Below, piece by piece: positions 11,390 to 61,689 of a stretch of DNA of 64,000 bases. Each line of letters begins with the position of its first letter. Position 1 is the stretch's first letter. Below the pieces are notes generated by a model. That model did not search any database and was not told the DNA's origin. It saw nothing but the letters and a program-made list of their open reading frames with translations. Both the position numbers and the translations under genes were made by a program. Source of the DNA: a virus; the IMG/VR virus record IMGVR_UViG_3300032331_002067, positions 1 to 64,000 of that record. One strand, 5' to 3'.

Positions 11390-11672
11390 TTGGCAGAGCA
11401 AAGCACTCTGTGCGAGCGATCCAAAACAACACACTTGGTGGTCTTATGATAAAGACGACATTGCTTATGCAAAACAAGGTTGTTCTCGGTGCTCAGTTCG
11501 TGCAGAGTGTTTTCTCTCAGCTTGGGAATCTGATGAATTCTATGGCATCAATGGTGGAATCTCTGAATACGAGTTCCTACTGATAACATGGAAAAAATCA
11601 AAAAAGGAATCCAATGTTAACTGGAAAAGAACTGATAGAGATCTTCAAAGAATCATGCGAGAAATCACATAA
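11373..11672 (+). CDS. whiB: WhiB-like transcription factor
   Basis: W...ALC...AKQGCSRCSVRAEC...GINGG (four Cys plus a variant GxWGG); start at ATG 11373. Confidence 0.75.
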   Translation: MALASNWQSKALCASDPKQHTWWSYDKDDIAYAKQGCSRCSVRAECFLSAWESDEFYGINGGISEYEFLLITWKKSKKESNVNWKRTDRDLQRIMREIT

Positions 11673-39162: not shown

Positions 39163-39519
39163 ATGTCAACAATTACAATTAATTGGTTAGATGAAGCTGC
39201 TTGTTTAGGTCAAGGAACAGATTTGTTTTATACAGACACTGTTTATACATCAGAAACAAAGAAGATTATTGCCAAAGCTAAAACATTTTGTAATAGTTGT
39301 CCGGTAGTTGCTGATTGCTTACAATATGCAATTAATAATGAAGAAAGGTTTGGGGTTTGGGGTTCTTTTTCATCAAAAGAAAGAGCATCAATCCGAAACC
39401 ATTTGAAAACCAATGACATTACAAAAGATCAAGCAAAGGCAATGGTTAATAAAACAGTATTGCAAGTAAAAGAAACATTCAAAAATACAATATTTGTGGA
39501 GGGTGATAATGCCCGATGA
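39163..39519 (+). CDS. whiB: WhiB-family transcription factor (second copy)
   Basis: W...AAC....LF...AK.FCNSCPVVADCL.YA....GVWG.....ER. Confidence 0.9.
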   Translation: MSTITINWLDEAACLGQGTDLFYTDTVYTSETKKIIAKAKTFCNSCPVVADCLQYAINNEERFGVWGSFSSKERASIRNHLKTNDITKDQAKAMVNKTVLQVKETFKNTIFVEGDNAR

Positions 39520-52223: not shown

Positions 52224-53296
52224 ATGAAGAAAAATCCAATGGTGAAGGTAAAACTAAGCCGATTAGATCTCGAAATCTTAGGCGAAGCCTTAGTTGAATC
52301 AGAGAGGGTTGTTCACATACTTGGTGATGAAGAATATATCGCTAGGTATAACCATATTGCCGATGTGATAGCTGACCGAATGGTAAATCTTTATAAAAAG
52401 AGAGAAAAAGCCAAAAAGCGTAGATTCCGGTATCAGAAAGTAAGGTTTGGACTATGGGGCTAGTTATGGAATGGAAAATGACAAAAGACTACAAAATAGA
52501 TAGGGATGTATCAACATCAATTGAACAGATTGAGTTTGTACATAGCCTAATCCAAGAGCTAGAGAATAAAGGGGTCGAATTGCCGATGGGTGATTACAAC
52601 CTTATTTATGACTATATTGAGGGGGCTAGAGATATCCTTATGGAATACGAAGAAACAATGGATTTCGAGGAGGAATCATGACTTATTACGAATGTGAAGA
52701 ATGCAGCAGAACGCTGTCTATAGAAGAAATAAATTATGGGCACGATTGTGAGCCAAAAGAGGAAAGTGGAGTTATTTATGACCCAAGCAAAAGAAGCTAT
52801 TAATATGACCCATAGTCATTATTGGAAATGTACGGATATTCCGGGCTATTTCTTATGTGAATGTGGGGCTATGTCCAGACACAATAGAGAAACCGGATCA
52901 AAAGAGATTTGGAGCCTTGAATCGGAAGGTGGCGAAATATGATACTAATAGACTTTCTATGTCTTATCCTGCTATATACGATTCACCGTTTGGTAGCCCA
53001 AAAGCCAAATGATGCCTTTGGGAATATGATGTTCTTAATCCTTGCGGGGTTCGGGTTCCTATTCTTATTCCTAGATGTAATTGAAAAGATAAAGGGATTG
53101 TTCTGAGATGATAAAGAAGAAGATTGATCCAAGTGATCGGCGGGAATATTTCTATGGAGAAAGTGTACATGAATATATCGGGGTTCTTGTAGAGATGATT
53201 CTAAAGATAGAAGAGTCTAAAGAGATAGGGAATCTAGATAAGGATCGTATAAGAGTTCTATTAACTGATTCTATTTCTATTCTGAACGAGTATTAA
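52224..53296 (+). other. Last small hypothetical genes of the + early block (about 52224, 52466, 52805, 53108)
   Basis: ORF track with start reassignments. Confidence 0.45.
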
Positions 53297-53330
53297 CACA
53301 CAGGTATATACACATATCTGTGGATTACAT

Positions 53331-53339
53331 TGTGGATAA
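53331..53339 (-). promoter_or_regulatory. DnaA box (perfect TTATCCACA); second perfect copy at 53584-53592, near-matches at 53306 and 53319
   Basis: tgtggataa on +. Confidence 0.65.
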
Positions 53340-53432
53340 GCTACCCGTATAGATACCGTATAGTAGCAATCATGTAGTAAGCGCTCAACATGGCGCAAAT
53401 ATATACTAATTAGTAGTTAGTAACATAGCAAT

Positions 53433-53479
53433 TAAAAGCCTTAGAGGTAAGTTAAATCTTATCTTTAGGGCTTTTTTTT
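53433..53479 (+). terminator. Terminator ending the + early block
   Basis: aaaagccttagaggtaag...cttatctttagggc-T8. Confidence 0.75.
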
Positions 53480-53563
53480 GTGCCTAAAATCAGCATAAAG
53501 TAAAGAATAATCGATAAAAAACGATCAAAACATAGCAAAAACATACTATTTTGTATCAAAACA

Positions 53564-53579
53564 TCGAACATTTGTTCGT
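53564..53579. promoter_or_regulatory. LexA/SOS box of Gram-positive/actinobacterial type
   Basis: TCGAAC-ATTT-GTTCGT vs consensus TCGAAC-N4-GTTCGA. Confidence 0.65.
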
Positions 53580-54268
53580 ATGTTGTGGATAACTTCGGAT
53601 ATGTACTAAAATTAAAGGTAAAGTTAAAGAAAAACAGCCTACATTAGAGAGCTGAATGCGTATTCGCCGGCTTTGTTCTATCTATAGCTATCTCTATCCC
53701 TATATATAAGCTAGAAGACTATCTAACCCGGAACTTTGCGGGAAAGCTCATAATTTGAGAATGTATAAGTGCCCCTTACCCTATATATATCCCTAGCTAT
53801 AAAGTAAATAAGAATATTTGAAGGTATTTACCCCGATAGTTAATGTATTAGAGAATGAGGTAGAGAATGTGATAGTAGATATCCCAAATGCCGGCGATAA
53901 TAATGTGAAAGTTACGGGCTTGTAATTTGAGTCATATATTCACCTATATATGTACAGATATACCTAGGGGAATAGATAAACCAATAGCCCCGTCTTATTC
54001 CTCAGACCCCATAATTTGAAAGGGATACTGATCCCTTACCCTTATCTTAAATTGAAATAGAAATTTAAACTTAATAAAAGAAAGATTCATCATGATTAGT
54101 AAATTCATTAAATTAATGAGAAAATTAAAGTTAAATTTAATTGGTGTCCAAAACGCTGAAGCGTTTATGGTACCCCAACCATAATTTGAAAGTTAAGGTG
54201 GTCCCTTACCGTATAGGTATCGTTTGGAGAATGTATTAAATTAATAAGAAAGATAAAGGTAAACGAAA

Positions 54269-54343
54269 CTGGTGTTCAAGTGCTTTAGCACGCCCAGAAC
54301 ACCAGCGATTTTGGGCAAAAAAAAACCACGCCTTTCGGCGTGG
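54269..54343. repeat. Hairpin element type A plus minus-strand terminator (copy 1)
   Basis: ctggtgttc-aagtgctttagcac-gccca-gaacaccag, then cgattttgggc-A9-ccacgcc/ggcgtgg. Confidence 0.8.
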
Positions 54344-54379
54344 AAAAAACTTTCGTTTATTTTTTCGGTTTCACTTTCG

Positions 54380-54730
54380 CTAAGCGTTCGCCTTGCGAGA
54401 GATAACCATTCTGCCATCGTCAAGCCAGTTGATTTGGATTGCAATCCCCAACTTTTCCGAAACACTTTCGGCACGATTTCGGTATTTCATCTTTTCGGCT
54501 TGAATCTTCGTTGAATCTTGGTTGAGATTCACCGTTGCTTCAGACCAAACGAATGCGTCACCGATTTCGTTGGGGTCTAATGACAGAATGTCTGTCGCCA
54601 ATACAGGGTTTTCGTATGGGGGTTTCCCACGCTTGACCAACTTGGATTGGATTTCGGAAAGGTTTACCTTTTGGTTTGCCTTTTTGGGTTTGTCGCCTGC
54701 GTTATCGCTCGGCATGGTTGTTGTAGCCAC
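54380..54730 (-). CDS. Small putative DNA-binding protein, paralogue 1 (leaderless GTG)
   Basis: KRGKPPYENPVLATDILSLDP..GDAF.WSEATVNL..KMKYRNRA; GTG 6 nt after the -10. Confidence 0.75.
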   Translation of the reverse strand: MATTTMPSDNAGDKPKKANQKVNLSEIQSKLVKRGKPPYENPVLATDILSLDPNEIGDAFVWSEATVNLNQDSTKIQAEKMKYRNRAESVSEKLGIAIQINWLDDGRMVISRKANA

Positions 54731-54736
54731 ATCTAC

Positions 54737-54768
54737 ATAATACGAATGGGCTTGGGTTATGTATTCAA
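54737..54768 (-). promoter_or_regulatory. Cassette promoter P1
   Basis: TTGAATACA...TATTAT, 32 bp; same geometry in six copies. Confidence 0.7.
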
Positions 54769-54793
54769 TAATCGTAAATAATAGACCCAGAAC

Positions 54794-54835
54794 GGCGGGC
54801 GCACGAAGTTCGCTGAAGCTCTCCGCACGCCCGTC
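54794..54835. repeat. Hairpin element type B (copy 1)
   Basis: ggcgggcg...gctgaagc...cgca-cgcccgtc. Confidence 0.7.
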
Positions 54836-54926
54836 ATGATTTGAATGGTAATTTGAATCCTTACGGAGATCCTTACCATGATTTGAAAATGTGAATGAAA
54901 TTTTACTCATAGCTACACCGGTAGAA

Positions 54927-55002
54927 GCTGGCGTTCAAGTGCTTTAGCACGACCCGAACGCCAGCGATTTTGGGCAAAAAAAAACTCGCCCCGAGGGGCG
55001 AG
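54927..55002. repeat. Hairpin element type A plus minus-strand terminator (copy 2)
   Basis: gctggcgttc/gaacgccagc, with a compensatory change relative to copy 1. Confidence 0.8.
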
Positions 55003-55033
55003 CCAAAAAAACTTTTTTTGTGTGGGGGGGATG

Positions 55034-55366
55034 TTACTGAGGAGTACCGAGGGAGATAATCATTTTTCCGTCATCCTGCCAGTTGATAGCGATGGTTACG
55101 CCACACTTCTCAGCAACGCTGAGGGCACGATTACGGTACTTCATTTTCTCTGCTTGTACCTTGTCCTGTGGTGCTGTGAGGTTCACAGTCGCTTCCGACC
55201 AGTAGAAGGCATCGCCCTCAACTGTTGGGTCAAGACTGAGAATGTCAGTAGCGAGCACTGGGTTCTCATAGGGGGGCTTGCCTCGCTTCACCAAGTTAGC
55301 CTTGATGCTGTTGAGGTTCACCTTTTTGTTTGGTTCCGCTTTGCGGTCACCTGTGTTATTTGCCAC
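55034..55366 (-). CDS. Small putative DNA-binding protein, paralogue 2 (leaderless GTG)
   Basis: Highly similar to the 54380-54730 protein. Confidence 0.8.
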   Translation of the reverse strand: MANNTGDRKAEPNKKVNLNSIKANLVKRGKPPYENPVLATDILSLDPTVEGDAFYWSEATVNLTAPQDKVQAEKMKYRNRALSVAEKCGVTIAINWQDDGKMIISLGTPQ

Positions 55367-55372
55367 GAGATA

Positions 55373-55589
55373 ACTATACCTATGGGGTTCACCTGTGTAT
55401 CCAATACCTACTAAATACTCTCATAGATTAGACCCAAACTGGCTGGTGCTTAAAAGAGCTGAAGCTCTTCCGCACACCAGACCATCTTGTGTATAGAGAG
55501 AGCGCATACTCAATCTCTCTGACTGTCCGTCTGGGTCGGCTTGGCGTTAGGCACAAAAAAAGGGAGAGAGCCGAAGCCCTCTCCCTTTT
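55373..55589. repeat. Inter-cassette element: promoter P2 (55373-55404), hairpin B (55443-55480), GCGCATACTCAA box, terminator (55555-55589)
   Basis: Aligns with three following copies; UUCG-loop terminator on the minus strand. Confidence 0.8.
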
Positions 55590-55608
55590 CGTCAGCCCGC
55601 AAGTGATT

Positions 55609-55881
55609 CTAGCGGTTTGCTTTGCTTACTACTGGACTTGACTTTGCGCCGACTGTCCATGAGATGGACACGGGCTTACCAAGCCTCATAGAGATGGTAT
55701 GTATGCGGTTGCGATACTTCATCTTTTGAGTGTGATTGCTCTGAGTGACACGAATATCACTCAAGACAATCTCATCAGTTGTCTTTTTGAGAAGGCGTAG
55801 AGCCTGCTCAATGTTTGCGTCAGAGAATGGGGGTCGCCCACGCTTGACGATTGTTGCTGTACCTTTAGGCTGAACTTTCAT
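55609..55881 (-). CDS. Small basic putative DNA-binding protein, paralogue 3
   Basis: IVKRGRPPF...KMKYRNRI...LG..V.ISW; SD gtagga before ATG 55881. Confidence 0.75.
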   Translation of the reverse strand: MKVQPKGTATIVKRGRPPFSDANIEQALRLLKKTTDEIVLSDIRVTQSNHTQKMKYRNRIHTISMRLGKPVSISWTVGAKSSPVVSKANR

Positions 55882-55930
55882 GATTCCTACTTTCGTTGGG
55901 TTTAGGTTCACCGTTGGGCTGACATCTATA

Positions 55931-56134
55931 ACTATACCTATGGGTTGAATATATGTATTCAATATGAGAATATATAGACCCTAGATTCGCTGGCGTTTAA
56001 GAAGTCTGAAGCCCTCTCGCACACCAGCTCGCTTAGGTAGGAAGAGAATGTGTACTCAATTCCAATGGATCGCCTGTCCGGGTCGGAGTGGTGTTAGACA
56101 AAAAAAAGAGGGGGTCTTGCGACCCCCCCTCTTT
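55931..56134. repeat. Inter-cassette element: P3, hairpin B (55989-56028), box, terminator
   Basis: Alignment with the other copies. Confidence 0.8.
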
Positions 56135-56147
56135 CGGAGTGTGTGAC

Positions 56148-56543
56148 CTAGGCGAAGGCTAGGAACTCAACGATTGCCTGTGAGTAAAGGTGACCCTCCA
56201 CTTGCATATTCTCACCCAACAATGCCTCAACCGCTTTCACGGCTGGTAGCAATGTTTCCTGAATGGTGAACAATGTCTCGTAGTAGGTAGCCTTCGTGAC
56301 TGTCTCGCTATCGTCACGGGTCACTGTTCTAATGACTGTCTGAGTAGCGTCTAGGAGTGTCTCACCCGTTGAGCGGGCTTGTTCTAGGAAGAACATATGA
56401 GTATCTCCTGACATATGGTCAGACTGAATCATGACCTTTATAAATGCCTTAGTGAATATCTCCACGAAGGTGTTGAGTGTGCTTGCGAACACATTCAGAC
56501 TAAGTATCTGAAGTGGCTCGCAGGGTTCAAGTAGTGGTTCCAA
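56148..56543 (-). CDS. Hypothetical helical protein (cassette 4)
   Basis: SD gaaagg then TTG; bounded by promoter and terminator. Confidence 0.6.
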   Translation of the reverse strand: MEPLLEPCEPLQILSLNVFASTLNTFVEIFTKAFIKVMIQSDHMSGDTHMFFLEQARSTGETLLDATQTVIRTVTRDDSETVTKATYYETLFTIQETLLPAVKAVEALLGENMQVEGHLYSQAIVEFLAFA

Positions 56544-56587
56544 TGTTACCTTTCCGCAGTTCATTTGTTCACTGCTTCCATACACCT

Positions 56588-56811
56588 ATATTACTATCGG
56601 GTTTAGAATATGTATTCAATATCGGGATATACCTAGACCCACATTGGTTGGTGCTAAAGGAAGCTTAAGCCTCCTCGCACACCAAACGAACATCGGTACG
56701 GGAAGACGATCAGTGTAGAGAGAACGCATACTCAACTCTATAGACTGTCCGTACCGAATGGATTGGAGTAGAGACAAAAAAAAGAACCGTACTGGCTGTA
56801 CGGTTCTCTTT
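56588..56811. repeat. Inter-cassette element: P4, hairpin B (56648-56685), box, terminator
   Basis: Alignment with the other copies. Confidence 0.8.
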
Positions 56812-56820
56812 CTTGGGGGT

Positions 56821-57033
56821 CTAATCGTTTGGTCGGTATGTCTCGTACCCATAGGGGTCGTAGATAGTGGTCGTGGTCTCGCAAGGGTAGTGAAACTCTT
56901 GGCAGTCGGGGATACCCTTTCCCCCCCTCTCACCGATAATGAAGCAGGCGATAAGTATCGCATACGCAAGGCTCACCCAAAAGATGAACCTCACGAATGA
57001 GCGAATACGGTAGTAGGTAGGTGAGTGCCCCAT
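56821..57033 (-). CDS. Small membrane protein (cassette 5, gene 2)
   Basis: TAATG-coupled; FVRFIFWVSLAYAILIACFII TM helix. Confidence 0.6.
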   Translation of the reverse strand: MGHSPTYYRIRSFVRFIFWVSLAYAILIACFIIGERGGKGIPDCQEFHYPCETTTTIYDPYGYETYRPND

Positions 57034-57296
57034 TACAAGCACCTCGGGCACTTGCAGGGGGCAGGCTCGCAACACTCAGTAGCGTTGGTCAGTATCTCAA
57101 ACTTACGCAACCCTTTGAGGATTGCGGGGTTGAGGTAAAGGTTCTCTGTCCAACCTTCGTACTGAGCCTCACACATTGCCTTGCAAGCCTCATAGATAGA
57201 GAACTCATTAGGGTGAGTTCGTAGTGTCCAATACATGTCCCAGTTCTTAGGGAACTGGGTTGCCTCTGCGATAGCAGTCAGCGGGTTTATTCCCAT
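57033..57296 (-). CDS. Hypothetical protein with Cys-rich C-terminus (cassette 5, leaderless ATG)
   Basis: ATG 6 nt after TATAGT; CCEPAPCKCPRC. Confidence 0.6.
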   Translation of the reverse strand: MGINPLTAIAEATQFPKNWDMYWTLRTHPNEFSIYEACKAMCEAQYEGWTENLYLNPAILKGLRKFEILTNATECCEPAPCKCPRCL

Positions 57297-57302
57297 ACAC
57301 AC

Positions 57303-57530
57303 ACTATACCTATGAGGTTAGAATGTGTATACAAAATGAGAGAATACCTACCCCCTTACACGCTGGTGTTTAAGAAGGCTTAAGCCTTCCCGCACTCCAG
57401 CGATTCTAGATCTATCACCGTTCCCCTGAGAGGTCGTGTATAGAGAGAGCGCATACTCAACCCTATGGGCTGTCCGCCTCGGTAGGAATGGTGTTAGGCA
57501 AAAAAAAGAGCCAGCCCGAAGGCTGGCTCT
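57303..57530. repeat. Inter-cassette element: P5, hairpin B (57361-57402), box, terminator
   Basis: Alignment with the other copies. Confidence 0.8.
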
Positions 57531-57555
57531 CTCTCTTGGGGGATTGTTGGGGGTC

Positions 57556-57888
57556 TTAGTAGTTGCGACCATTCGCATCGGTTACCTTGTAGCCCGACTT
57601 GACGAGCAAGGCAATGGCTAGGTCGGCATCGCTTGATACTCGCTCACGAATAGGTGACTTTACCTCGTAGCCTGCCATGAGTAATTCGTTCATTGCGCTT
57701 TCTACGATAGCCTCACGAGCCTTTATGTGGAGTTTGCTTGCTGTCTTGACCATGTAGGCGAGTTGGTCGTCAAACATTTTGGCGTATGCTACGGAGAACT
57801 TTACGCCCTCGCTTGCGACTTCCATGTTGCGTAGTTGAACGCAAGCCTCCTTGAAGGCTTCTTGTATAAGGTTAGTATCGTGTGACAT
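57556..57888 (-). CDS. Hypothetical protein (cassette 6)
   Basis: SD gaaagga; internal repeat A..LL..GY.V. Confidence 0.65.
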   Translation of the reverse strand: MSHDTNLIQEAFKEACVQLRNMEVASEGVKFSVAYAKMFDDQLAYMVKTASKLHIKAREAIVESAMNELLMAGYEVKSPIRERVSSDADLAIALLVKSGYKVTDANGRNY

Positions 57889-57938
57889 GGATTCCTTTCT
57901 CGCCCGTCAGTTGTTCGGGGCGTTGCTTCCATGTCATA

Positions 57939-58034
57939 ACTATACCTATGGGCTGAAAATGTGTATTCAATCTAGGGAATAAACAAACCCCTACCCTGCG
58001 GGCGTAAAGCGAAGCTGAAGCTTAGCACGCCCGC
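57939..58034. repeat. Promoter P6 plus hairpin B (57998-58034)
   Basis: TTGAATACA...TATAGT; gcgggcg...aagctgaagctt..gca-cgcccgc. Confidence 0.75.
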
Positions 58035-58209
58035 CTATTGACTCCCCAAACAGAGGAAAACGAAAAACAAAAAAATAACGCAGTAGCATGCTACGGATAT
58101 ATACTCAAATTTTCTAAAAAACGGGGTCGGCTGCAAGTGCCGGGTTTTGGTTTAGAAAACGGGGGAGATGGGGGGTTGAGTGCGTATTGCTCCCAGAGCT
58201 GAGCTGCTG

Positions 58210-58282
58210 CTCCCAGAGTAGGGCTTGAACCTACGACACACGGATTAACAGTCCGTTGCTCTGCCAACTGAGCTATCTGGGA
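58210..58282 (-). tRNA. tRNA-Asn(GTT)
   Basis: tcccaga acceptor, tagctcagttggcagagc D arm, acgga-ctGTTaa-tccgt, ggttcaagcc. Confidence 0.92.
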
Positions 58283-58322: not shown

Positions 58323-59093
58323 TCAATTTGTATTCACTTCTACATTTATCTCTAGAATCTTATTGGAGGAATGTTGAGCTACATTATCTTGTCCTATGTT
58401 AGTGATCTCGTATCCGAGAGACTCAATGTAGGAGAATAGATCTTGTCTCCGGGGCTGGAACCATTCCTTGTTTGCCCACGCTTCAAAGAGAATAGGTGGG
58501 AACCCATTTCGCTCAATAGTATTTTTTGCGCCCACGAGAACAGCGAGTTCCAAGCCTTCTACATCGATTTTGATGAGCTTGATATCGTTCATCTCAAGTG
58601 AGTCCAATTTTAAGACAGAAATCAATTCCGTGTTACCACTGGAGGTACACTCATAACCGTTCTCACGCACCTCGTGATCAAGGCTAAAGGCTCCTACATT
58701 CAATTCTGTGGAATAGTCCGGCAACTGAATATAAAACGAATCTGGCTCGTATGACAAACCGAAGTTTTTGGCGAATACATTGTCACACCTGTTGAGTAAG
58801 ATATTTGAACAAAGCTGGTAAAACACGATTCTTTGCGGTTCAAAGGCATGGAACTCAAACTGTGGATACTTCTTTGCTAACGGCACACAAAAGCTTCCTA
58901 CATTGGCTCCGATGTCCAAGACCAAACCCTGCTCACCAATCCTGAGATAGTGATCCAAGAACATTCCTGAGAATGTGAGAATGTGTGGCTCATGCCCAAC
59001 TTTATTCTTTAAGGCATCTGAGATGAGATCATCTTTATCAAACAAGAAAAAGCGACAATCCCCTCCGTCATATATTGAAGATGATGGAATCAT
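58323..59093 (-). CDS. FkbM-family methyltransferase
   Basis: LDIGANVG, AFEPQ, LIKIDVEGLE..VL.GA..TI....P.I.FE. Confidence 0.9.
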   Translation of the reverse strand: MIPSSSIYDGGDCRFFLFDKDDLISDALKNKVGHEPHILTFSGMFLDHYLRIGEQGLVLDIGANVGSFCVPLAKKYPQFEFHAFEPQRIVFYQLCSNILLNRCDNVFAKNFGLSYEPDSFYIQLPDYSTELNVGAFSLDHEVRENGYECTSSGNTELISVLKLDSLEMNDIKLIKIDVEGLELAVLVGAKNTIERNGFPPILFEAWANKEWFQPRRQDLFSYIESLGYEITNIGQDNVAQHSSNKILEINVEVNTN

Positions 59094-59105
59094 ACTTTCC
59101 TTTTG

Positions 59106-59324
59106 CTATTCATTATCTCTATTATACCAATGAGACTCACGATATCTCTGCATGGCGTTGATATTTGAGACTGTTTGTGCAACCTGTCGATGCCGGCGAT
59201 TCCGTGACCACAAGCTATTCTGAAACCACGAGGAAACAGCCACATACCCGGCATAACCCACACACAATATTGCAAACCACCTTGCAATCACTACATAGTA
59301 TCTTTCGGGTGCCACCTTGGTCAT
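59106..59324 (-). CDS. Small membrane protein
   Basis: Hydrophobic helix; ATGA coupling. Confidence 0.5.
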   Translation of the reverse strand: MTKVAPERYYVVIARWFAILCVGYAGYVAVSSWFQNSLWSRNRRHRQVAQTVSNINAMQRYRESHWYNRDNE

Positions 59325-59884
59325 GCCATTCCTCCATCGGGAAGGAAGTTTATGTTTATTGCGAATCTAAAAGGACTCAATACGGGATTGCTTCCCGCAT
59401 GAAGGATGTCTCCATCAAACACAACCGCCGTTCCTTTTTTGGGATATACTTCTTTTACAACATTGAGGTCGTCATCATAGAAGTATGTAGGACCGTCTGA
59501 GTCGTTCACATAGTACAGACAGACAAGATGTGGAACCAAACTGCCATCCTCTAGTTTTAAATCAGTGTGTGGTGTCTGAGGACTACACCGGGATGGGTTT
59601 GGCATCGTGACATTTACCTTTGCTCGATACAACCGGATGTCTCCATGCTTATCCTGAATAGCATTGATTATTGGCAATACAACAGGAAGATTCGGAGACT
59701 GTTTTTCTTCCCCCATCATAAAGAGATGATTGGTTAGTTGTTTACCGGAAGAGGATGAGCTGCCAGTTTCTAATGGATCGTTATGAATATTTTGAAAACG
59801 GTAAGGGAATGCGTTGCTAGAGACAAACTCTTCAATTAGGTTCTGATCCTTAACTGGTATGAAGTTTTCAAAAATATCTATCAT
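59321..59884 (-). CDS. 2OG-Fe(II) oxygenase
   Basis: PHTD (HxD), YYVNDSDG.T, FDG...HAG..P....R..ININF. Confidence 0.85.
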   Translation of the reverse strand: MIDIFENFIPVKDQNLIEEFVSSNAFPYRFQNIHNDPLETGSSSSSGKQLTNHLFMMGEEKQSPNLPVVLPIINAIQDKHGDIRLYRAKVNVTMPNPSRCSPQTPHTDLKLEDGSLVPHLVCLYYVNDSDGPTYFYDDDLNVVKEVYPKKGTAVVFDGDILHAGSNPVLSPFRFAININFLPDGGMA

Positions 59885-60043
59885 TAGTAACGCTGATTCC
59901 GCTCAAGCCTAGATATCTCACATTCTTGATTAATGATGGTGGACATCATTCCTTCAACCTTCTCCTTTAGCTTTAAATTTTCTTCTTCAAACATGGCGCA
60001 CCTATCAATCCACCATTTAATTGTCACTCTGTCCATTTGGGGA

Positions 60044-60451
60044 TCACTTTCCACTCTTGACTCTTCTTTTCTGAAGAAGGTCAAAGTCTTTAATTTTTGT
60101 TTCCCCCATGTACTCCCAAGCAAAGCCATCTTTGATCAATTGTTCATTAACAGAAGTCGGTTGGTCATCAATAAAGATCCATCCAAGAATTCTTCCGTAC
60201 TTTTCAGTGGAGTCGGGTTTCTCTGTTCTAATGACAATCTTTGTTGCAGCCTTTAGAATTTCATCTAGTCTCTTCTTTACCTCAAGACCAAGAACTTTTT
60301 CGTTCTTATCCGTTGTTCTAGATTCTGGTGTGTCAATACCGGCAAGTCTAACCCGCTGGTAATAAGAAATATTGAACCCAAGATCAATATCTACATCAAT
60401 GGTGTCACCATCAACTACTTTGTATAATTTTTTTACGACATATTCGTACAT
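60044..60451 (-). CDS. Thermonuclease (SNase-like)
   Basis: VVDGDTID..IDLGF...RVRLAGIDTPE...KYGRILG. Confidence 0.9.
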   Translation of the reverse strand: MYEYVVKKLYKVVDGDTIDVDIDLGFNISYYQRVRLAGIDTPESRTTDKNEKVLGLEVKKRLDEILKAATKIVIRTEKPDSTEKYGRILGWIFIDDQPTSVNEQLIKDGFAWEYMGETKIKDFDLLQKRRVKSGK

Positions 60452-60462
60452 ATAACCTCTTT

Positions 60463-61689
60463 CTAATTAATTTTTGGTTTTGGTGTGAACACCACTGGTA
60501 GAACTTCTATATTAGTAAATATAGTTGAATTTGGTGAGTGAATACATTCACCATTTATTTTAATATCTGGAAATCTTTTAATAATAGAAATTATAGCTAC
60601 TTCCATTTCAATTTTAGCAAGAATCATTCCAATGCATTGATGAAGTCCTCCACCAAAAGTAAGAATTTGACTTGCGTTATTTTTTCTAAAAGCAATAAGC
60701 TCATTAGGATTAGGAAAAACATCTGGGTCACGATTGCCGGAAGCAACATTAACAGATATAAGAGTTCCTTCTGGAAAGATGACTCCACGATATTCAATAT
60801 CTTCCATTGCCATCCTCAATGTTCCACGAAGAGTTGGTGTCAATCTTGCTAGCTCCTCTACTAAGTGAAGAACACGGTTATCATCCTGCAAAAGAAGATC
60901 GATTTCTTCCTGATGCTCTAGCAAATATGCCATTGATAAACTTAGTTGATTTCTAATTGTATCAATACCTGCTGTAACAATCATTTCAATAACAGCTGCT
61001 ATGTCAAAATCAGAAAGAACCTCTCCATCATCCGCTGGAGAAACAAGCTTGGAAATTACATCATGACCCGGATTCTTTCTTTTTTGTTTAATAATTTGAT
61101 CTGTAAAATTATTTATATCTGATTGTAAATTTTTAATTGTGTCAATAGTTACATCAGTATCAATATTGTATAAATCTAGAAGCGTTTTTGACCATTTATC
61201 TAAAATTTCCCAGTTTTCAATGGGAATATCAAATAAATCACAAAGAACAGCTATTGGATAAAAAGCAAATATATCTGCGGTTAAATTTGATGTACCTTTT
61301 TCTTCAATGCTATCAAGCAAGTCTGACATGATCTTTTCCATTTTTGGTTTCATATGTATTGCATTCATATATGTGAAAGCAGGCATAATCATTTTCTTTA
61401 AACGCCGATGGTCTTCTCCGTTAATTAGTAAAAGCCCTCTTTTTCTTTTTTCACGGTATTCAGGAGTCAACGCTGGATGAAGATCATTGAATACAATTAG
61501 TGGAGATTGCCATCTCTTATCTCTTAAAACAGCAAAACAATCTTGATTACGCAAAACAGCATAACCAATTCTTGTCTTTACTAGCCAAGATTGAGCAGCT
61601 AATTTTTCAGTTTCTTTAAAACCATCATGCCTTGTCAATACATTATTCATATATGGCAAATCTAATTGCTCTGCTAAATATGTCATCAT
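60463..61689 (-). CDS. Cytochrome P450
   Basis: H.RL, I-helix AGIDT, K-helix EELAR, NRDP..FP.P, heme ligand FGGGLHQCIG. Confidence 0.95.
   Translation of the reverse strand: MMTYLAEQLDLPYMNNVLTRHDGFKETEKLAAQSWLVKTRIGYAVLRNQDCFAVLRDKRWQSPLIVFNDLHPALTPEYREKRKRGLLLINGEDHRRLKKMIMPAFTYMNAIHMKPKMEKIMSDLLDSIEEKGTSNLTADIFAFYPIAVLCDLFDIPIENWEILDKWSKTLLDLYNIDTDVTIDTIKNLQSDINNFTDQIIKQKRKNPGHDVISKLVSPADDGEVLSDFDIAAVIEMIVTAGIDTIRNQLSLSMAYLLEHQEEIDLLLQDDNRVLHLVEELARLTPTLRGTLRMAMEDIEYRGVIFPEGTLISVNVASGNRDPDVFPNPNELIAFRKNNASQILTFGGGLHQCIGMILAKIEMEVAIISIIKRFPDIKINGECIHSPNSTIFTNIEVLPVVFTPKPKIN

Follow-up and report, generated by a model that had tools for sequence, protein, structure and literature searches.

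Restriction words are missing from the expression units of a cassette array in a probable terminal repeat of a lake phage

Why do seven small adjoining phage genes contain not one copy of several short palindromes that are common elsewhere in the same genome? The question is raised by IMG/VR virus record IMGVR_UViG_3300032331_002067, a sequence of 100,001 nucleotides (nt) that is classed as linear with a CheckV completeness of 96%, and whose first 64 kb (64,000 nt) form the window analysed here. Between 54.3 and 58.0 kb, seven small minus-strand genes form six units, hereafter called the cassette array, and this array together with an adjoining gene-free zone makes up an unstranded 4.7-kb block (block R, 53366-58064) that is a probable direct terminal repeat. 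The original prediction for this DNA had taken the missing palindromes as the signature of first-injected DNA that enters the cell before anti-restriction protection exists, with hairpins between the cassettes shielded by folding or bound protein. Our overall reading, to which we give about an even chance of being right, is a restriction purge at the level of single units in the early-exposed terminal repeat of a lake actinophage.

Seven palindromes are absent from the cassette genes

Gene starts were refined before counting; thus the 176-amino-acid (aa) open reading frame (ORF) at 54380-54910 overruns its own promoter box, and the true gene is 54380-54715. The seven coding sequences (CDSs; 2,172 nt, 48.8% guanine plus cytosine (GC)) contain no GATC, AGCT, CCGG, TCGA, GGCC, ACGT or CGCG. 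TTAA is also missing and AATT occurs once, and CATG, CTAG, GTAC, TGCA and ATAT are present at normal levels. When the CDSs were compared with 1,000 synonymous-codon shuffles, in which the proteins and the codon pool were preserved, the shuffled sequences carried on average 41 copies of the seven words (minimum 25), and 25.1 copies of GATC, AGCT, CCGG and TCGA together (minimum 12), versus 0 observed in both cases. CCGG by itself is not significant in the window (shuffle mean 1.8), and becomes significant over the six arrays described below. Among all reverse-complement 4-mer classes, 8 of the 16 palindromes are absent, compared to none of the 120 non-palindromes (Fisher P = 5e-9). Because only palindromes are absent while other palindromes stay at normal levels, the purge is specific, and it matches what dimeric Type II enzymes would be expected to cause. 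The predicted absence of the seven named palindromes from cassette coding DNA thus stands in every count and survives correction for both composition and codon usage.

Avoidance comes in three layers

Not all seven words are a signature of the cassettes. In the whole 100,001 nt, GGCC, CCWGG, CGWCG, GCSGC and GGSCC are absent, ACGT and ACTAGT occur once each and CGCG occurs five times, although composition predicts 31-138 copies of each of these eight words. A purge of eight words throughout a genome is unusually heavy for a phage of 37% GC. Since GGCC, ACGT and CGCG are missing from the entire genome, they are uninformative on the cassettes, and of the proposed signature it is AGCT, GATC and CCGG that are unit-specific: the rest of the genome holds 435, 224 and 172 copies of them, respectively. 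CCSGG is likewise absent from all units. Two further words, GCWGC and GGWCC, behave differently. Elsewhere in the genome they occur 204 and 59 times, respectively, but neither is found anywhere in the array, linkers included, and no GCWGC-free interval of the genome is longer than the one that spans block R (52703-58130). Restriction avoidance is usually read as a genome-wide property, and here it comes in three layers, namely everywhere, across the 4.7-kb block, and in transcription units only. If our overall reading is true, these layers would separate host enzymes that the phage cannot neutralise from those that are neutralised after early expression.

The promoter-to-terminator unit is the site-free entity

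The original prediction had also noted sites inside the inter-cassette elements, and this was confirmed: seven AGCT, four GATC and two CCGG lie between units, and two more AGCT (58013 and 58019) lie in the leader of the array. All 13 AGCT, GATC and CCGG sites of the window array that lie between the first and last unit fall in linkers (P = 5e-9). Across the six arrays compared, no site of the array-specific word set was found in 16.3 kb of units, versus 74 in 4.6 kb of linkers (16 per kb). This linker density is about twice the genome mean, and both flanks of the array as well as the gene-free zone show normal densities. It is the whole unit from promoter to terminator that is free of sites, not just the CDS and not the DNA tract.

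Each unit starts with a bipartite promoter box, TTGAATACA..ATAGGTATAGT, and ends with a terminator made up of a GC-rich stem and a T-run after it. Between a terminator and the next promoter lie linkers of 137-236 nt, in each of which another box (TTGAGTATGCG) and a hairpin some 40 nt long are found. Both the promoter box and the hairpins are confined to the array within the 100 kb. GTTRRRY-like words after the terminators were noticed by eye only. All six units lie on the minus strand. Unit A (54344-54768) consists of its promoter box, CDS 54380-54715 (111 aa, of the KRGKPP..KMKYRNR family) and its terminator; it is without avoided words, as is unit B (55005-55406), whose CDS 55034-55366 encodes a 110-aa paralog. 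Unit C (55555-55962) carries CDS 55609-55881, encoding a distant paralog of 90 aa with an isoelectric point of 11.4. The unit at 56100-56619, found in all six arrays, carries CDS 56148-56564 for an acidic helical bundle of 138 aa, and is followed by a two-gene unit (56776-57341) with CDS 57033-57296 (87 aa, Cys-rich) and CDS 56821-57036 (71 aa, hydrophobic), and by unit X (57500-57970; CDS 57556-57888, 110 aa).

The linker between units A and B (54769-55004) contains two hairpins, AGCT at 54817, 54911 and 54926, GATC at 54868 and CCGG at 54918, and the linker between B and C (55407-55554) has AGCT at 55457 and 55463, both at the hairpin apex. In the remaining linkers, sites lie at 56026 (AGCT), 56068 (GATC) and 56078 (CCGG) of linker 55963-56099, at 56662 (AGCT, hairpin apex) and 56708 (GATC) of linker 56620-56775, and at 57409 (GATC) of linker 57342-57499. 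The leader linker (57971-58064), with a hairpin and the two AGCT sites at 58013 and 58019, ends at the right border of block R. Hairpins stand upstream of every promoter box (54798-54835, 54924-54965, 55441-55481, 55988-56028, 56646-56686, 57361-57402 and 58000-58030). Their outer and inner stems, separated by an internal loop, covary across 36 copies in the six arrays, and the apex GCTT[AC]AGC is kept. Lying in a gap that is probably untranscribed, they may be a candidate binding site for a protein at the DNA level. Rfam returned no match for the hairpins, and nothing else in the array region besides a tRNA.

Integron arrays consist of a tyrosine recombinase, IntI, beside promoterless cassettes that end in attC. 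This candidate was rejected for the present array, as no gene of the Phage_integrase family was found in the 100 kb and every unit comes with a promoter box and a terminator of its own.

The twofold excess of sites in linkers over the genome could also be read the other way round, with the linker sites being there for a host or phage enzyme to methylate, nick or bind, and with units avoiding the words in order to escape modification or binding in transcribed DNA. We find this very improbable. The site positions vary between linkers, many of the AGCT sites simply arise from the sequence at the apex of the hairpins, and a search for phage DNA methyltransferases found no C5, N4/N6, D12, N6_Mtase or phage Dam gene in the 100 kb, which represent about 96% of the genome.

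Selection maintains the purge in a shuffled array

An array at the same locus, between tRNA-Asn and the AT-rich zone, was found in one IMG/VR contig and nine metagenome contigs, and these relatives carry differing unit sets. In 38 cassette CDSs from six arrays, ACGT, AGCT, CCGG, CGCG, GATC and GGCC are all absent. Avoidance of TCGA, TTAA and AATT is less strict, with a few copies in the cassettes of relatives (for TCGA, 5 sites in the 38 CDSs). We then counted synonymous differences along spanning trees of the ortholog families, and compared them with a random placement among the synonymous options. Such placement predicts that the 381 synonymous differences would have produced about 48 forbidden sites (some 25 being AGCT, CCGG or GATC), and not one was seen. 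For this reason, the purge is maintained by present-day purifying selection and is no relic of a foreign donor.

The cassettes do differ in composition from their surroundings (48% GC vs 37% in the rest), as would be expected if they had been imported from a word-poor donor of higher GC and had not yet ameliorated. Nevertheless, such a legacy is hardly credible in view of the synonymous differences, and also because non-homologous cassettes are all purged, no donor was found, and a raised GC is shared by the terminal repeat of the Streptomyces phage Coruscant (see below).

The differing unit sets at one locus bear on a further alternative, in which selection acts on the cassettes themselves. 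Units would circulate among related phages, and site-free ones would outlast the restriction of a doomed genome in one piece and be rescued into co-infecting genomes by recombination in their conserved linkers, so that the purge would serve the cassette and not the entry of the phage. Recombination of the required kind was seen in the source sample. In run X1 (sequencing runs are Logan contigs here, and depths are k-mer depths), a minor variant (depth 4.4 vs 18.1) joins position 55965 to 57977 and lacks three units; its joined promoter boxes, from unit C to unit X, are direct evidence of unit gain and loss by recombination between boxes. Selfish cassettes would also fit with the confinement of the promoter box and hairpins to the array, with the position of sites exactly between units, and with the similar shuffling of the PeSL cassettes of T4-type phages (PMC2839356). 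On the other hand, the benefit would be of second order, and it would stay unexplained why only this variable region is purged and why it lies in a block of twofold depth. Moreover, no homolog of the cassettes was found beyond this phage lineage in 185,579 species genomes, and IMG/VR yielded only one further contig. Selfish selection is compatible with our overall reading, and as an explanation by itself we regard it as unlikely.

Block R is probably a direct terminal repeat

In source run X1, a single unitig of 4,699 nt covers 53366-58064 at a depth of 18.1, compared to 8.05 in the left flank and 10 in the right flank. The pattern recurs in an unrelated lake run (X4), where a strain with about 90% likeness has a depth of 15 vs 4.9 and a border at 53378; the change in depth is sharp at the borders in both runs. 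In addition, a complete contig of 5,314 nt from another Joint Genome Institute (JGI) sample (L010) spans only ~58079 to ~53345, and a sister sample of the one that yielded it assembles through both block borders. Uncovered stretches in runs X2 and X4 were not counted as evidence.

A direct terminal repeat (DTR) of this kind is known from Coruscant, whose 12-kb DTR was recognised by its twofold coverage (PMC7650747). We found the ends of Coruscant to be identical over 12,244 nt, with a GC content of 54% in the repeat vs 47%. Its layout is also alike: small rightward genes come first, then a gene-free stretch of about 1 kb, then small leftward genes set apart from each other, and finally leftward genes with a tRNA. 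Because of the roughly twofold depth, the match of the JGI contig to the block borders and the synteny with Coruscant's DTR, we regard block R as somewhat more probably than not a 4.7-kb direct terminal repeat. The predicted position of the cassettes near the genome ends is accordingly probable, as all three lines fit a collapsed DTR and the contig coordinates of the record are arbitrary with respect to the true ends.

The left part of block R is an unstranded, gene-free and AT-rich zone (53366-54230; 865 nt, 33% GC) with repeats, a DnaA box, a plus-strand terminator (53434-53485) and no ORF. Its density of restriction words is normal, with 10 AGCT, GATC or CCGG sites and 1 GGWCC. Of the four perfect DnaA boxes (TTATCCACA) in the 100 kb, two flank the left border of this zone: the one at 53331 lies outside it by about 35 nt, and the one at 53584 lies 220 nt within.

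Units rather than the DNA tract may be what is kept intact

We propose the following explanation for the purge. As a terminal repeat, block R would be the DNA nearest to both physical ends and probably an early or host-takeover module. Its units would be transcribed from unprotected DNA while enzymes that recognise the block-specific word set are still active, and the unit products, or later functions, would then shield the site-rich remainder of the genome. Early expression of the units is itself part of this proposal, and we infer it. Selection would preserve the integrity of each expression unit instead of that of the DNA tract, because linkers and gene-free zone alike retain sites. A break between units would be survivable, either because the other terminal copy is intact or redundant, or because only the products matter. 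Glycosyltransferases and oxygenases encoded by the phage might act as DNA modifiers.

That block DNA can be cut follows from the roughly 25 AGCT, GATC and CCGG sites that remain in it outside the units (13 in inter-unit linkers, 2 in the leader and 10 in the gene-free zone), about half of the array ones not being in hairpins. These sites also decide on the literal form of the first-injected model, in which the whole stretch must stay uncut and the hairpin sites are shielded by folding or bound protein. The probable terminal position, the absence of GCWGC from units and linkers alike, and the reality of the hairpins, with their covarying stems and conserved apex, would fit this model, and 7 of the 15 array sites do lie within hairpins. 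The other 8 lie outside, such as GATC at 57409, 56708, 56068 and 54868 and CCGG at 56078 and 54918, so that folding cannot cover them. Ten further sites lie in the gene-free zone of the block, the linker density of 16 per kb exceeds the genome mean, and short imperfect hairpins are not extruded from duplex DNA without supercoiling stress. We consider the literal model improbable, and two claims of the original prediction are unsupported: a site-free first-injected tract, given the remaining sites and the genome-wide avoidance of three of the seven words, and a protection of the linker sites by hairpins. Partly supported is the more general idea of a terminal, early-exposed region, with which the probable terminal position, the presence of small genes that each unit drives from its own promoter, the non-coding zone with its DnaA boxes and the additional word avoidance agree. 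Overall, hairpin shielding, linkers as methylation targets and a foreign legacy are less likely than selection on the unit within the phage or on the cassette.

Several points weigh against our proposal of a unit-level purge in a terminal repeat. The twofold depth could reflect a block common to two co-occurring genomes with unrelated flanks, and a collapsed repeat alone should not break the de Bruijn graph at its borders. The sites left in the putative repeat are of a kind that is harmful in T5. The promoter box is a poor match to the Escherichia coli sigma-70 consensus, and Pfam and PHROGs give no family for any cassette protein, so that no function can be assigned. The remaining 4% or so of the genome could hold a methyltransferase. 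Finally, Coruscant's DTR shows no avoidance of 4-mers, and palindrome avoidance specific to the DTR is thus ruled out as a general trait of the lineage.

Taking the proposal one step further, the terminal repeat might be expendable, consisting of self-contained, restriction-proof units joined by linkers in which cutting is tolerated or even used; we put this forward as a doubtful extension. If true, a chopped entering end would still yield the product of each unit, and freed units could recombine into other genomes via their conserved linkers. If our overall reading is true, it would also mean that expression units, and not the DNA molecule, can be what selection keeps intact.

Comparison with known systems

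In T5-like phages, restriction sites are harmful only in the first-transferred terminal repeat, where any site sensitises the phage (PMC10644984). The remainder of the genome carries many sites and is guarded by a pre-early function, and next to the region lies a non-coding stretch containing repeats and DnaA boxes (PMC10644984; bioRxiv 10.1101/866236). The lake phage resembles T5 and BF23 (Tequintavirus, with a repeat of about 10 kb) in having small, probably early genes in what is probably a long terminal repeat, and at its border a large non-coding zone that contains repeats and a DnaA box; the two DnaA boxes beside and within the left end of block R recall the DnaA-box zone at the injection-stop region of T5. 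Different from T5, block R is about half as long, the likely host is an actinobacterium, and sites are purged from the units only, with about 25 left. Many words of 4-5 bp are avoided here, compared to a few 6-bp or Type I sites in T5. A site-free region of the T5 type was not found in block R as a whole, but only at the unit level and for GCWGC. Among the cassette proteins, searches of Pfam and PHROG revealed no homolog of T5 A1, A2 or Dmp. If the doubtful extension given above is true, the strategy would be distinct from the site-free first-transfer DNA of T5, as the genes would be protected and the molecule sacrificed.

[quoted passage not shown] The likeness lies in an early-entering, highly variable region rich in anti-defence genes being the place where sites matter. 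The mechanics of entry differ, however, and the evidence concerns one Type I motif by experiment there versus many Type II-like words by sequence statistics here.

PeSL cassettes of T4-type phages are small ORFan genes between promoter and stem-loop motifs, and recombination between motifs adds or removes units (PMC2839356, PMC4122927). They resemble the present array in architecture only, and not by homology, in that small genes are flanked by motifs, unit sets are shuffled among the six arrays, and a variant joins two boxes. They differ in that they are unrelated in sequence, belong to another phage group, and are scattered over hyperplastic regions instead of lying in a terminal repeat. No description of a partition of restriction words was found for PeSL cassettes in the literature.

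Coruscant and the BE cluster (Stanwilliamsviridae) share with the lake phage their module order, a gene-free zone of about 1 kb, spaced leftward small genes, a raised GC content of the repeat, and WhiB genes. In Coruscant, however, the repeat is 12.2 kb long vs 4.7 kb, it contains no cassette homologs, and 4-bp palindromes are not avoided in it. Genome-wide, Coruscant has no CTGCAG, two CAGCTG and one GAGCTC. Its DTR has no GAATTC in 12.2 kb, whereas the rest of the genome has 48, a rate at which 6.6 are expected in the DTR; this gap may correspond, for a 6-bp word, to the effect in the lake phage.

Avoidance of restriction sites by early-exposed DNA is a known principle. We did not find, in the searchable literature, the partition into site-free units and site-rich linkers, the three-layer structure of avoided words, or the setting in an uncultured lake actinophage.

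The cassette proteins

Genes A, B and C are paralogs that share KRGKPP and KMKYRNR motifs and always stand at the inner end of the array. Their family has about 80 metagenomic cluster representatives. The model of the unit B protein (predicted local distance difference test score, pLDDT, 87.5) has two short N-terminal helices followed by a strand-helix-strand-strand core. Fold searches with this model and that of the 138-aa protein gave no PDB match and one uncharacterised BFVD match, and ESM Atlas gave no lead for the 138-aa protein. Likewise, nothing in the phage record collection matched the array at the nucleotide or protein level, the promoter pattern had no match in IMG/VR, and no IMG/VR locus was found for distant homologs of the A/B/C family (P0047, P0060). 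An anti-restriction or takeover role of the cassette proteins is a guess; if our overall reading is true, the seven proteins would be candidate anti-restriction or takeover factors against freshwater Actinobacteria, which are hard to culture. In one freshwater metatranscriptome (run X20), four contigs of 151 nt fall on genes A and B (54432-54708 and 55026-55350) at a depth of 2. They may be a weak hint of expression, and DNA carry-over is possible.

The source phage, its host and neighbouring genes

The closest matches of the large terminase subunit (TerL) and the DnaE-type polymerase are proteins of the Streptomyces phages of the Coruscant/BE cluster, with 41% and 38% identity, respectively, over more than 90% of their length. 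These hallmark proteins, a module order like that of the Coruscant/BE phages and the WhiB markers are all traits of Stanwilliamsviridae-like phages, and together they suggest a distant relationship to these Streptomyces phages with long terminal repeats; the TerL and DnaE identities are too low for claiming membership of the family. Because of its two WhiB-family genes (39184-39390 and 11391-11573), the predicted host is likely an actinobacterium. A cyanophage host had been raised on account of the 2-oxoglutarate (2OG) oxygenases and the avoided AvaII/AsuI-type words, and was dropped given the WhiB genes and the actinophage-like TerL and DnaE. The identical sequence or close strains are present in many lake-water metagenomes.

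Genes on the plus strand encode tail-fibre-like proteins, a DnaB-type helicase, the DnaE-type polymerase, glycosyltransferases and the large terminase, and this module is followed by about 23 kb of small plus-strand genes with 31-35% GC. Minus-strand coding starts at 54.4 kb and continues onward. Just beyond block R lies a minus-strand tRNA-Asn (58209-58282), which adjoins the array in the relatives too. Further along the same strand, within 58323-61689, are genes for an FkbM-type methyltransferase (58323-59093), a 2OG-Fe(II) oxygenase (59321-59884) and a cytochrome P450 (60463-61689; Pfam E = 3e-33), an unusual gene set in a phage.

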